Sequence record: NZ_CP077636.1
DNA length: 38,247 bases
DNA from: a plasmid
Direction: 5' to 3' (one strand)
Under the pieces are notes generated by a model. That model did no database searches and was not told where the DNA came from. It saw only the letters and a list, made by a program, of their open reading frames with translations. Below are positions 6,609 to 9,189 of this stretch, in pieces; within the stretch, counting starts at the first letter, position 1, and each line of letters begins with the position of its first letter. The translations under genes and the position numbers were made by a program.

Positions 6609-6802
6609 TTATACCGACATTTTGCGGAAATTACATAATCCAATCAAATAGCCTATTTATAGCCATTAGAATAGATTTTTTTAGAAAAAAATATTAGTAA
6701 TTTAAGTTAATTTTTATATTTATAAAATACATTATAAATCCTATTTTACCATTACTTTAAGCTTTTTATAAGTCGCAAAATGTCGGTATAATTTTATAAG
6801 AT
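6609..6802. repeat. iteron module copy 1 (inverted iteron 6609-6628, spacer, direct iteron 6782-6802); about 190 bp near-identical to 32821-33004
   Basis: ttataccgacattttgcgga ... ttttaccattactttaagctttttataagtcgcaaaatgtcggtataat; overlaps relaxase 3' end. Confidence 0.8.
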
Positions 6803-8365
6803 TTTTTGATTATCTTTTGACTTATTAAACCCACCATAATTAATTTTATTAGACTTCACAGAAACTAATTTTAAATCATCGTTTATATTTAAATACTCAC
6901 AGCCTTTTTTATATTCTTGGATAATATAAGCATTTAAAGGAATTTTATTCTTATTTTTAGAAATAGAAAGTTTTAGATTATCTAAACGATTTTTAGCATA
7001 ATCTTTTAAAAATTCTTTGTTTTTTTCTAAGATTTTTAAATAATTTTCATATTCTTTGACTTCAGCGTTTGATTGTTTTAAAATCTCTATATAATTATTT
7101 ATATTATTTATCTTTTTTTCTATTTTAAAAATGCTTTCTTTCTTGCCATTAAAGAGTTTTGTTAGGATAGTATTAGCTTCCATAGTATTTTTTAAACTTT
7201 TGTCTAAATTAACATCATTTTTTAAAATAGATAATTTGACTTTTTCTAAAAGATCATAATCACTTTTTGTCGCTAGCTTATTTTTACGCATAAAATCAAC
7301 AAAATTTTTTAGATTTTTTGTATCTACAATGCTTTGATAATTATATTTATCAAGCTCTTTATTTAAAAGAGAAATCTTTTCATTAATTTTTTGAATTTCT
7401 TTTATTTCTGATAATATTTTTAAATCAATTTTATTTAAATCATCTGATAGTTTTTTTAACTCTTTGCCTAATTTGAAATATTTTTTATTATTTTTCTTTT
7501 TGTATTGATTAAAAAGATTTATGAGATCTAGTCTTTTTTGCTTTAATTCTAAACTTTCATTATTTAAAATATCAATCTTAGATTTTTTATTCTCTAGCTT
7601 TTTGCTTTCCTTTCTAATTATATTTAAAATCATATCACTTAAATCTTTTTTTGTATCTATATCATCAAGATATAAAGTGCTTTTTATTTTTTGATATTTT
7701 CTATCTAAATCTTTTTCGTAAGAAGCTTGGTTATGATAATGTAATCCTTTAGAACTTAAAGACATAGAAAAATTACTTCTAACATCATTCCAAAAATCTT
7801 TAATATCATCTTTTGTATTAAAATGAATTTTCTTTTTTGTTAAAATATTTCTTTTATTTAAAACAATGTGAATATGCGGATTATTTTGATGAGTGTGTAT
7901 TGCCATTACATACTTATAACCAAAAAAATTATTATCCATAGTTTCTTTGACACTTTTTTTTAAAATCTCTAAGTTTTTTTCAGAAGGATTTTCTTTAATA
8001 GAAAAAATCAAATGCCAAGCGTCTTTAGCATTTTCTTGATTTGAAAAATCCATTTTCCAATCTTTTATCACATCTTCTGTTAAAATCTCTTCCCCCTTTT
8101 CATTTATAAGATAAGGAGTATCAGCACTATTTAAAATATAATCCATTGCTCTTTTTGCTCCGTCTTTAGATAAATTAGAACAAAGCTTAACCACTGCTTG
8201 CTTAGAATAGGTAGTTTGATTAATATTATTAATATTATGTTTTATGGAATAACTATTAACAAAACTATTAAAAACTTTATTGCGTTTATAATTATCTTTT
8301 ATAACTGAACTTGCTTTTTTAATTTTTTGAATTTCTTCCCAATAATCGCTAAAAGATTTTTTCAA
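6794..8365 (-). CDS. conjugative relaxase, MOBP (RP4 TraI/VirD2-like) family, with long coiled-coil C-terminal domain
   Basis: N-terminal Tyr (FSDYWEE), motif II 'AWHLIFSIKENP' (cf. RP4 TraI 'tYHLlvSf'), 3-His motif 'AIHTHQNNPHIHIVLN' (cf. RP4 TraI HTDTDNLHIHIAIN). 523 aa. Confidence 0.85.
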   Translation of the reverse strand: MKKSFSDYWEEIQKIKKASSVIKDNYKRNKVFNSFVNSYSIKHNINNINQTTYSKQAVVKLCSNLSKDGAKRAMDYILNSADTPYLINEKGEEILTEDVIKDWKMDFSNQENAKDAWHLIFSIKENPSEKNLEILKKSVKETMDNNFFGYKYVMAIHTHQNNPHIHIVLNKRNILTKKKIHFNTKDDIKDFWNDVRSNFSMSLSSKGLHYHNQASYEKDLDRKYQKIKSTLYLDDIDTKKDLSDMILNIIRKESKKLENKKSKIDILNNESLELKQKRLDLINLFNQYKKKNNKKYFKLGKELKKLSDDLNKIDLKILSEIKEIQKINEKISLLNKELDKYNYQSIVDTKNLKNFVDFMRKNKLATKSDYDLLEKVKLSILKNDVNLDKSLKNTMEANTILTKLFNGKKESIFKIEKKINNINNYIEILKQSNAEVKEYENYLKILEKNKEFLKDYAKNRLDNLKLSISKNKNKIPLNAYIIQEYKKGCEYLNINDDLKLVSVKSNKINYGGFNKSKDNQKIL

Positions 8366-8437
8366 AGTTGTATCCTTTTTTTTATTATCGTAAATATTTT
8401 TATAAATTGTATTTAAAATCCAATTTTTTGTATAGGG

Positions 8438-8446
8438 GCAGGATAA
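8438..8446 (-). other. candidate nic site TTATCCTG|C (MOBP consensus YATCCTG|Y), 75 bp upstream of relaxase start codon
   Basis: plus strand gcaggataa = minus strand TTATCCTGC; a GC-containing 9-mer within the expected intergenic window. Confidence 0.4.
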
Positions 8447-8527
8447 CCCTTTATAGTGGCTTTTTTTGTGTATTAAAGCCTAAAATAAGGCATTTAAAAC
8501 ACAAAAAAGGATTTTTTTACAAAAAAT

Positions 8528-8554
8528 AAAATCAAAAAATACTTTTTTGATTTT
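8528..8554. repeat. perfect 12-3-12 palindrome aaaatcaaaaaa-tac-ttttttgatttt
   Basis: read directly from the sequence; a third partial arm at about 8592 (gaaaatcaaaaag). Confidence 0.8.
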
Positions 8555-8649
8555 TCATTCTGCGAATGTATAATGAAAAAATATTTACGAAAATCAAAAA
8601 GTAAATTTTTAAAAATTCTTATATTAATAAGTATTAATTTTATGATATG

Positions 8650-8840
8650 AAAAATAAAATCAATAACTAGAAAAAAATCTATAATAAGAAAAAATATTTC
8701 TAACTAGAAAAATAATTACTATTAATAATAAGAAAAAATATTTCTAACTAGAAAAAGATTAATCTACATAACAAGAAAAAGAAATCAATCAATGATAAAA
8801 AAGATAGTCATAATAAGAAAAAAAGAAATCAATCAATGAT
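8650..8840. repeat. direct repeats in oriT region: ataataagaaaaaatatttctaactagaaaaa x2 and agaaatcaatcaatgat x2
   Basis: read directly. Confidence 0.7.
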
Positions 8841-8973
8841 TTAATTATGAATTTTAAAAAATGATTTTTAATGAGAAATATATTTTTAGAATAAAAAAGC
8901 TTTAGAAATAAGGAAAAAATAAAATATTCTATATTTATTTTTTTATATTTTTTAGAAAAAATGAAAAAAAATA

Positions 8974-9189
8974 TTATACCGACATTTTGCGGAGTTTTTA
9001 TAGTGGCTTTTTTTGATAAAAAAAATATTTTAAACAATTAAAAAATCATTATTTTTAACAATAAAAAATAATAAAAAATAATAAATCAAAATAACTTAGA
9101 TTAAGTATTTTTTAAAAAAATAAACTAACTTCAAATAACTAAAAAATCATTATTTTAAGCTTTTTATAAGTCGCAAAATGTCGGTATAA
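8974..9189. repeat. iteron module copy 2 (inverted iteron 8974-8993 ... direct iteron 9170-9189) immediately upstream of virB2
   Basis: attataccgacattttgcgga ... ttaagctttttataagtcgcaaaatgtcggtataa. Confidence 0.75.

Follow-up and report, generated by a model that had tools for sequence, protein, structure and literature searches.

Why should copies of the repeats that form a plasmid's replication origin stand beside the genes for its transfer? This question is raised by sequence record NZ_CP077636.1, in which the relaxase gene and the origin of transfer (oriT) lie between two modules, M1 and M2, each bounded by an inverted pair of the 18-bp repeats, or iterons, that also occupy the replication origin (oriV) next to the initiator gene repA. 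The window, i.e., the whole stretch of DNA analysed, is 38,247 bp long with a G+C content of 25.9% and belongs to the Campylobacter pVir family. Both of its ends are contiguous in six related plasmids; thus, it represents a whole circular plasmid, and the 12 iterons found in it are the full set. A BLAST search with its 6-10 kb segment gave 33 PLSDB plasmids, mostly with identities of 94-99%; pVir of C. jejuni 81-176 is one of them. For conjugative plasmids it is a central question how vertical replication is coordinated with horizontal transfer and its costs, and pVir is a genetically tractable member of this family for which maps of transcription start sites (TSSs) exist. Here we argue that M2 is an ancestral pair of putative RepA sites on the promoter of the type IV secretion system (T4SS) operon, which may link replication to transfer, and that M1 is a later copy of an oriV module. 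The coordinates of all features are given in Table 1.

Iterons within and outside the origin

The 18-mer CGCAAAATGTCGGTATAA has 12 mismatch-free copies in the window, against 0.03 expected from shuffles of the sequence. Eight are located at oriV beside repA, and the remaining four form the two inverted pairs M1 and M2; these satellites make up a third of all presumed RepA sites on the plasmid. Judged by their position and by the protein family of RepA, the repeats are iterons: they form an array of direct repeats, in the range of about 17-22 bp, beside a Rep_3-family rep gene, as expected of a Rep3-family theta replicon. On the circle, M1 and M2 are 11.6 kb and 13.9 kb away from the end of the iteron array, and the satellites lie outside the minimal origin. 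All seven distinct pVir-family plasmids compared carry M1, M2 and the oriV module, with four to seven direct iterons at oriV.

The original prediction had recognised a unit of one inverted and one direct iteron at three places, which are indeed M1, M2 and the left module of oriV, the last being displaced by 13 bp from the predicted 32821-33004. It had also described M1 as near-identical to the oriV copy, and the two (183 versus 184 bp) share 97% identity, compared with 68% between M1 and M2. As further predicted, M1 and M2 have the same orientation on either side of the relaxase/oriT unit, and the relaxase gene and repA are on the minus strand; almost every other gene is on the plus strand, and the annotation of pVir puts no gene but these two on the minus strand.

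At oriV of pVir, differential RNA sequencing (dRNA-seq) mapped a secondary repA TSS at 18900 and an orphan TSS at 19329 (Dugar et al. 2013, PMC3656092 Table S5). The -10 element of the former, TATAA(T), is the end of the inverted oriV iteron, and the latter follows the last oriV iteron; the mapped starts lie just outside the first and last iterons. In addition, a homopolymeric G11 tract is present within repA near its 3' end (31904-31914). It is G10 in two relatives (L009 and L010; loci and lineages are denoted by L numbers), where repA is annotated with 825 nt versus 837-840 nt elsewhere, and the C-terminus of RepA may be phase-variable.

The M2 pair at the T4SS promoter

The primary TSS of the virB2-like gene, which heads the T4SS operon, is located at 34278 of pVir (Dugar et al. 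2013, PMC3656092 Table S5). The upstream sequence, TTTTATAAGTCGCAAAATGTCGGTATAACCCTTAAGGTTATAATTTTGCGA, is identical to window 9162-9212 over 51 nt including the TSS. Relative to the mapped start, TATAAT occupies -12 to -7 and the (+) iteron of M2 occupies -40 to -23. This putative RepA site overlaps the core promoter, the arrangement expected of an initiator-operated promoter. In culture this promoter has little activity (step height 16, against 4440 for repA; PMC3656092), a hint that it may respond to the initiator.

Comparison with the C. novaezeelandiae plasmid (~85% DNA identity) showed that the M2 repeats are more constrained in sequence than their surroundings. In the intergenic region between the relaxase and virB2-like genes, the two M2 iterons are 95% and 92% conserved, the M2 spacer 71% and the neighbouring DNA 47-79%; the nic core, the motif beside nic and the TATAAT box are further conserved islands. 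Moreover, in that plasmid TATAA is changed to TAAAA in all 12 iterons, including both M2 copies.

A wider comparison covered relaxase relatives at 34-58% identity and the H. cinaedi plasmid pD7095-1 (42%). In eight relaxase lineages (34-100% identity), an inverted repeat pair is present between the nic motif and the virB2-like gene. Its sequence is lineage-specific: CGCAAAATGTCGGTATAA in the pVir family, CCGCAAAATCTCGGTAT in L025, GTCGCAAAAAGGGGGT in L024 (C. lari), AAGTCGCAAAAAAAGGGGGG in L026, GCGCAAAAAGGGACATTAAT in L039, GTCGCATTTTGTCCGAGTTTG in L041, ATTCCCCAAAAACTTATAATG in L042 and CGCAATTTATCCACTTAATA in L005 (H. cinaedi). The lineage pairs have CGCAA-type ends pointing inward, an A+T-rich spacer and a centre-to-centre distance of 133-201 bp. 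The pair exactly matches the direct array of its own plasmid in pVir, L005, L025 and L039, that is, in at least four of the eight lineages. The array adjoins a rep gene in pVir and L005 (five copies upstream of rep in H. cinaedi); in L025 and L039, three and four array copies, respectively, occupy the gap syntenic with pVir oriV, where no cognate rep gene was found. The L042 array comprises four diverged copies with 3-4 mismatches. PLSDB contains no complete C. lari-type plasmid; thus, the oriV of the L024 lineage was checked by one proxy alone, Campylobacter sp. W0049 (L037), in which the L024 repeat is arrayed at least six times upstream of a 57%-identical RepA. A Rep from an ENA contig (P0035) has different iterons of its own (GGTGTTAAATAA, four copies); it does not belong to the L039 array and was left out of the co-divergence argument. 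At the level of sequence, the satellite iterons are shown to track the origin repeats of their own lineage, which lends indirect support to specific binding by the cognate initiator. The initiators have diverged along with the relaxases: window RepA is a homologue of the Rep of H. cinaedi (39% identity, E 7e-63), and relaxase/Rep identities run parallel, with values of 92/86% in C. novaezeelandiae and 42/39% in H. cinaedi. A tblastn search of RepA against plasmids yielded no intermediate relatives in PLSDB.

The position of the pair is also conserved. From the outer repeat end to the ATG of the virB2-like gene, the distance is 47-59 nt in all seven T4SS-bearing lineages; from the inner repeat to nic, it varies among lineages from 146 to 559 nt. 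M1 is without counterpart in L024, L025, L026, L039 and L041, in which an ORF130-like lipoprotein gene directly follows the relaxase gene. Thus, on the sequences compared, M2 is the ancestral element and M1 is specific to the pVir lineage; evolution has conserved M2 and its place at the T4SS promoter, but not an arrangement in which two modules bracket the relaxase/oriT unit.

We favour a combined model, to which we give an even chance of being correct, in which M2 would be a control site worked by RepA and would tie the expression of transfer genes to replication, with handcuffing possible and M1 adding further sites. In this model, the four extra repeats are putative RepA sites beyond oriV, and M1 and M2 would not form one unit. 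M2 lies between the T4SS operon and oriT and presents two outward-facing iterons, which in this plasmid clade are 130-200 bp apart in A+T-rich DNA. The outer iteron sits in the -35/spacer region of the T4SS-operon promoter; the inner one is turned towards the relaxase gene and oriT. Next to the inner one, in the Campylobacter subclade, is a second copy of the nic-flanking motif. RepA bound to M2 would repress or gate the transcription of transfer genes and, via the inner iteron, might act on the relaxase as well. Expression of transfer genes would be high while RepA is scarce, as when a plasmid has just entered the cell or has few copies, and accumulation of RepA would shut it down. A fresh recipient would lack the repressor, so that entry would be followed by a burst of transfer-gene expression that falls as RepA builds up. 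Meanwhile, the M2 sites might pair with RepA-bound oriV iterons by handcuffing or titration and thereby provide copy-number feedback. A functional link between Rep binding and transfer had been part of the original prediction; it is plausible, and is strengthened by the conservation across lineages and the mapped promoter.

A bolder version, which we offer tentatively and would not expect to hold in full, casts RepA as the master switch that governs conjugation of the pVir-like plasmids. Bound to the ancient iteron pair over the T4SS promoter, beside which the Campylobacter subclade would have a second docking site for the nic-adjoining protein, RepA would turn off the mating machinery and perhaps the relaxase as well, and RepA bridges between oriT and oriV would set the copy number. 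The transfer genes would then fire only while RepA is scarce, either just after entry, as a zygotic induction that needs no dedicated repressor, or for a short time once the fork has passed.

Several observations weigh against the combined model. The A. butzleri relative (L006) and a chromosomal solitary relaxase (L040) are without the pair, and the best -10 candidate of L025 would set the iteron further upstream. Where the iteron stands with respect to the -10 element can be fixed for pVir alone, because only pVir has a mapped TSS. Consensus scans for promoters and terminators gave 31 sites versus 24 expected and are uninformative at 26% G+C, which is why published TSS data were used. In the dRNA-seq data of pVir, no TSS was reported for the relaxase gene, the inner iteron of M2 or M1 (PMC3656092); thus, control of a relaxase promoter is conjecture. 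Furthermore, the uniformity of the iterons could stem partly from gene conversion rather than selection, clearly so for M1.

The satellites might instead be a pure copy-number locus like P1 incA or F incC, which titrates RepA and handcuffs oriV, with the overlap with the T4SS promoter being incidental. P1, F and RK2 offer classical examples of control by iterons beyond the minimal origin, and the large share of RepA sites held by the satellites would suit such a role, as would the variable iteron number of oriV itself and M1, which has neither promoter context nor TSS. However, titration and handcuffing need no fixed position, yet the spacing to the virB2-like start is kept in seven lineages, as is the inverted orientation of the pair; in addition, the known loci adjoin rep, whereas the satellites are ~12-24 kb off at the transfer region. 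We consider this explanation unlikely.

Table 1. Features of the window. Positions are in window coordinates; the slash marks the predicted nick.
Feature	Position	Strand	Remarks
M1	6609-6791		183 bp; inverted iterons 6609-6626 (-) and 6774-6791 (+); 147-bp spacer, 83% A+T
Relaxase gene	6794-8365	minus	MobA/VirD2 nuclease domain, PF03432, E 1.8e-11; PLSDB type MOBP
oriT nic core GGGTTATCCTG/CCCC	8435-8449	minus	matches RP4-type nic consensus
19-nt nic-adjoining motif AAAAAAAGCCACTATAAA (minus-strand reading), copy 1	8450-8468	minus	
Imperfect inverted repeat 5' of nic	8474-8511		
M2	8974-9189		216 bp; inverted iterons 8974-8991 (-) and 9172-9189 (+); 180-bp spacer, 88% A+T
19-nt nic-adjoining motif, copy 2	8997-9015	minus	5 nt from inner M2 iteron
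T4SS-operon promoter	9200-9212	plus	-10 TATAAT 9200-9205; transcription start 9212 (equivalent of pVir TSS 34278)
virB2-like gene	9239-9544	plus	first of T4SS operon; followed by virB3-like gene and virB4
MobC/CopG-like gene	16443-16850		inside T4SS operon
Coupling-protein gene	16847-18751		inside T4SS operon
repA	31870-32709	minus	Rep3_N domain, PF01051, E 2.6e-13
oriV iteron region	32808-33301		one inverted and seven direct CGCAAAATGTCGGTATAA copies
Left oriV module (V)	32808-32991		184 bp
Inverted oriV iteron	32808-32825	minus	exact CGCAAAATGTCGGTATAA copy
Direct oriV iterons	starts 32974, 32993, 33054, 33152, 33172, 33262, 33284	plus	exact copies

The relaxase unit, M1 and exchange between iterons

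The putative oriT has the features of the MOBP type, namely a YATCCTG/Y nic consensus, a 5' inverted repeat and an adjoining MOBP relaxase, with the site itself predicted from sequence. The nic core lies 70 nt upstream of the relaxase start, and by analogy with RP4 ATCCTG/C the nick is predicted between 8439 and 8438. Its first 12 nt, GGGTTATCCTGC, were found with two or fewer mismatches upstream of the relaxase in all related lineages examined. The 19-nt motif adjoining nic (plus-strand form, TTTATAGTGGCTTTTTTTG; the copy near M2 is also written GCCACTATAAA) has just two perfect copies in the plasmid, one at nic and one at the inner M2 iteron. The same doubling was observed in L024 (9590/9911) and L026 (~9333/9909). 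In L041 (~9460/9915), a different sequence, ACGCCGATATTTT, has the same double role; the pair changes together between lineages. The duplicated motif may represent a site for a relaxosome protein beside a Rep site, or twin relaxase promoters.

Other variation was observed in the same region. Direct repeats at 8684-8757 and 8776-8832 differ in copy number among plasmids: a 44-bp unit has two copies in the window versus one in pVir, and some other contigs are without one copy of the AGAAATCAATCAATGA unit. A profile scan of genome contigs with the relaxase alignment hit only three loci, one of which is a truncated, unusable relic in H. japonicus. Solitary relaxase/oriT units amid chromosomal genes are present in L026 (C. 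estrildidarum NXLZ01000003.1, 9146-12019), which keeps the iteron pair and has other pVir-like fragments nearby, and in L040 (a metagenome scaffold), which is without the pair. At such units, a pVir-like T4SS resident in the cell could possibly mobilise the chromosome.

M1 begins 2 nt beyond the stop codon of the relaxase gene. Its sequence marks it as a pVir-lineage-specific insertion, copied iteron-to-iteron from the left oriV module. M1 of the C. novaezeelandiae plasmid shares 97% identity with the oriV module of that plasmid but only 84% with M1 of the window, a pattern of concerted evolution of M1 and the oriV module through gene conversion across ~23 kb. In a clade of 43-kb plasmids, the exact M2 spacer is substituted in M1, the flanks remain M1-like, and the endpoints of the exchange fall within the 20-bp and 36-bp iteron homologies; here the relaxase/oriT unit is flanked by 216-bp perfect direct repeats. 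By the sequence record, the iterons are demonstrable hot spots of gene conversion. M1 probably adds RepA-binding capacity; that the relaxase/oriT unit came to be bracketed is a by-product of where M1 was inserted.

ORF130 (130 aa, lipoprotein-like) and its surroundings, at window 6140-6633, have chromosomal counterparts at L034 (C. jejuni chromosome CP048771.1) and L036. The C. jejuni copy is almost identical and comprises ORF130 with its -10 region, the terminator and the (-) iteron of M1 (one mismatch), and is located between truD and a peptide-chain release factor gene. Its homology stops 7 nt beyond the iteron, a further breakpoint at an iteron. In another locus (L013; GCA_002178015.1, 1.72-Mb scaffold, 4900-4960), a pVir-like plasmid was joined by scaffolding to a record of chromosome size, and an N run falls exactly at its M2 (-) iteron, so that the "missing" iteron is a scaffold-gap artefact. 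Iteron repeats can break short-read assemblies and mimic integration or deletion; such breaks, together with iteron gene conversion, matter for the typing and assembly of Campylobacter plasmids.

Could the modules simply be recombination scars, or the boundaries of a captured and deletable mobilisation cassette, with no regulatory role? Capture at iterons and precise deletability had both been suggested by the original prediction. Recombination between modules did occur, as seen from the uniformity of M1 and oriV in C. novaezeelandiae and the M1 replacement in the 43-kb clade, and its endpoints lie within iterons. The perfect 216-bp repeats of that clade and the chromosomal ORF130 segment ending just beyond the M1 (-) iteron also fit such boundaries, as does a degenerate integrated element in C. 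estrildidarum, in which the retained homology starts inside the outer M2 iteron. Of two apparent BLAST breakpoints at iterons (starts at query 751, ends at 3190), one reflects a record linearised at an iteron and the other is the real swap of the M1 spacer. The predicted polymorphism at module boundaries among relatives was thus found in the form of gene conversion, not of gain or loss of a cassette. However, the order T4SS operon, iteron pair, oriT, relaxase gene and lipoprotein gene is ancestral in eight lineages, and capture is therefore unsupported; relaxase and Rep diverged in parallel, and M1 is the later insertion, of 183 bp in the pVir lineage. The iterons are far better kept than the spacers, the M2 pairs follow the iteron of their own lineage, and the absence of M1 elsewhere means that bracketing is not general.

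Nor did a search for relaxase loss reveal any precise deletion, either in the 32 complete PLSDB records with the replicon of the window or in 18 distinct plasmid-type contig contexts, i.e., those retrieved with exact virB2-like and ORF130 proteins (two more ORF130 places are chromosomal); all keep the relaxase. Deletion is nevertheless mechanistically possible, since the window offers 20-36 bp of homology and the 43-kb clade 216 bp. Between homologous iterons it would remove 2365 bp (left by left) or 2398 bp (right by right), less than the 2.6 kb once put as the upper limit, and the derivative would be expected to lose self-transmissibility. The flanked relaxase is also not the only mobilisation gene, as had been supposed, since genes for a MobC/CopG-like protein and a coupling protein reside in the T4SS operon. 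Taken together, we regard the modules as mere cassette boundaries with little probability.

A further explanation is that the inverted pairs work in single-stranded DNA (ssDNA), where an 18-bp stem with a large loop could serve complementary-strand priming, early transcription or the termination of transfer. Both modules fold as ssDNA with a long-range iteron stem (z-scores of about -6), and the inverted orientation is kept in all lineages. On the RP4 model, the orientation of nic would place M1 ~1.65 kb into the leading region, with M2 transferred last. Such a stem, however, arises trivially from any inverted repeat, and neither the tracking of the Rep iteron sequence nor the fixed distance to the virB2-like gene is accounted for, which makes this role quite improbable. 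It is very improbable that M1 and M2 are secondary origins activated via looping to the oriV iterons, as R6K alpha and beta are through gamma: that precedent, the remoteness of the iterons and the spacers of 83-88% A+T speak for it, but there is no array, no cluster of DnaA boxes was identified, and the association with promoter and oriT is left unexplained. A miniature inverted-repeat transposable element (MITE) with merely iteron-like termini would agree with the inverted ends of the M1 insertion and with its limits, which coincide with the outer iteron ends, but is hardly credible with no target-site duplication at the M1 and M2 flanks, copies at syntenic rather than dispersed sites, diverged spacers (M1 versus M2) and the same repeat forming a direct array beside repA.

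Other repeats of the plasmid were recorded in passing. Families D1, D2 and D8, with 11-bp tandem units, occupy 1392-1547, 4812-4959, 6054-6198, 23516-23663, 30078-30222, 30433-30550 and 35969-36113. In pVir, a very similar cassette (…GTATAGATTAAGTATAGATTAAGTATAAAAAAGGTATAATTATAATA) precedes the mapped TSSs 11323, 16269, 16611, 25676, 29076, 30011 and 31257. These cassettes look like near-identical promoters that are spread over the whole plasmid and probably belong to a single regulon, which recalls the CUP elements of IncN. An 81-nt repeat at 1176-1256 and 20053-20133 (91% identity) ends in a G+C-rich hairpin, GCGGGGACACCCCGC; its first copy lies ~80-160 nt downstream of the equivalent of a strong orphan TSS, the small RNA candidate CJpv2 (pVir 25268), and a similar G+C-rich hairpin is present in L025, ~90 nt from a lone iteron (13475). 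An inverted repeat at 33790-33845 with AGCCACTA and TAGTGGCT is located ~40-50 nt upstream of the equivalent of the TSS of a 371-aa gene (pVir 19896). Its core resembles the nic-adjoining motif, L039 has a similar repeat at 16915-16960, and the window repeat may serve as the operator of a regulator of transfer. Rfam gave no family match anywhere within the window.

RepA and transfer in the light of known systems

Extra-origin iterons and autorepressing initiators are textbook features of plasmids. The satellites resemble P1 incA, F incC and the extra iterons of RK2 in being initiator sites outside the origin, with titration or handcuffing expected. They differ in form and place: the known loci are direct arrays next to rep, whereas the satellites are inverted pairs in the transfer region, one of them on the promoter of the transfer operon. 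As in the autorepression of F repE, R6K pir, pSC101 repA and pPS10, an iteron-type sequence at M2 overlaps the -35/-10 region of a promoter, and the initiator would act as a transcription factor. However, those systems target rep via adjacent dimer half-sites, whereas M2 would be directed at the T4SS operon, with full iterons 130-200 bp apart. R6K alpha and beta and the RctB sites of Vibrio cholerae (39-mers and crtS) likewise lie kilobases from the main array and act by looping or initiator remodelling; unlike them, the satellites are tied to oriT and the T4SS promoter.

With respect to exchange, the pdif modules of Acinetobacter are comparable in that a functional module lies between short repeats at which exchange takes place, and the R2 repeats of H. 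pylori pHel4 and pHel5 likewise bound a plasmid module. In contrast to pdif modules, no site-specific recombinase is implicated here, no gain or loss of a module was seen, and the bracketing M1 exists in one lineage.

Replication and transfer are known to be coordinated by dedicated repressors (KorA/KorB, FinOP) or quorum signals. In the literature searched, we found no prior description of pVir iterons, or of iterons at oriT or transfer promoters, although the original pVir paper was outside the coverage and an earlier mention is possible. What appears to be new, on the sequences compared, is a presumed initiator site that is conserved on a mating-pair-formation promoter and co-evolves with the origin in many lineages. 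If the combined model is true, an initiator on the mating-pair-formation promoter would be an economical coupling device, kept through the whole history of the plasmid clade. The closest parallels in logic are the KorA/KorB/TrbA regulators of IncP and the MobM relaxase of pMV158, which represses replication control (PMC5737340): in each, one DNA-binding regulator serves both vertical and horizontal inheritance. In those systems the regulator is a dedicated repressor or the relaxase, whereas in the pVir-like plasmids the candidate is the replication initiator itself, acting on the transfer genes.

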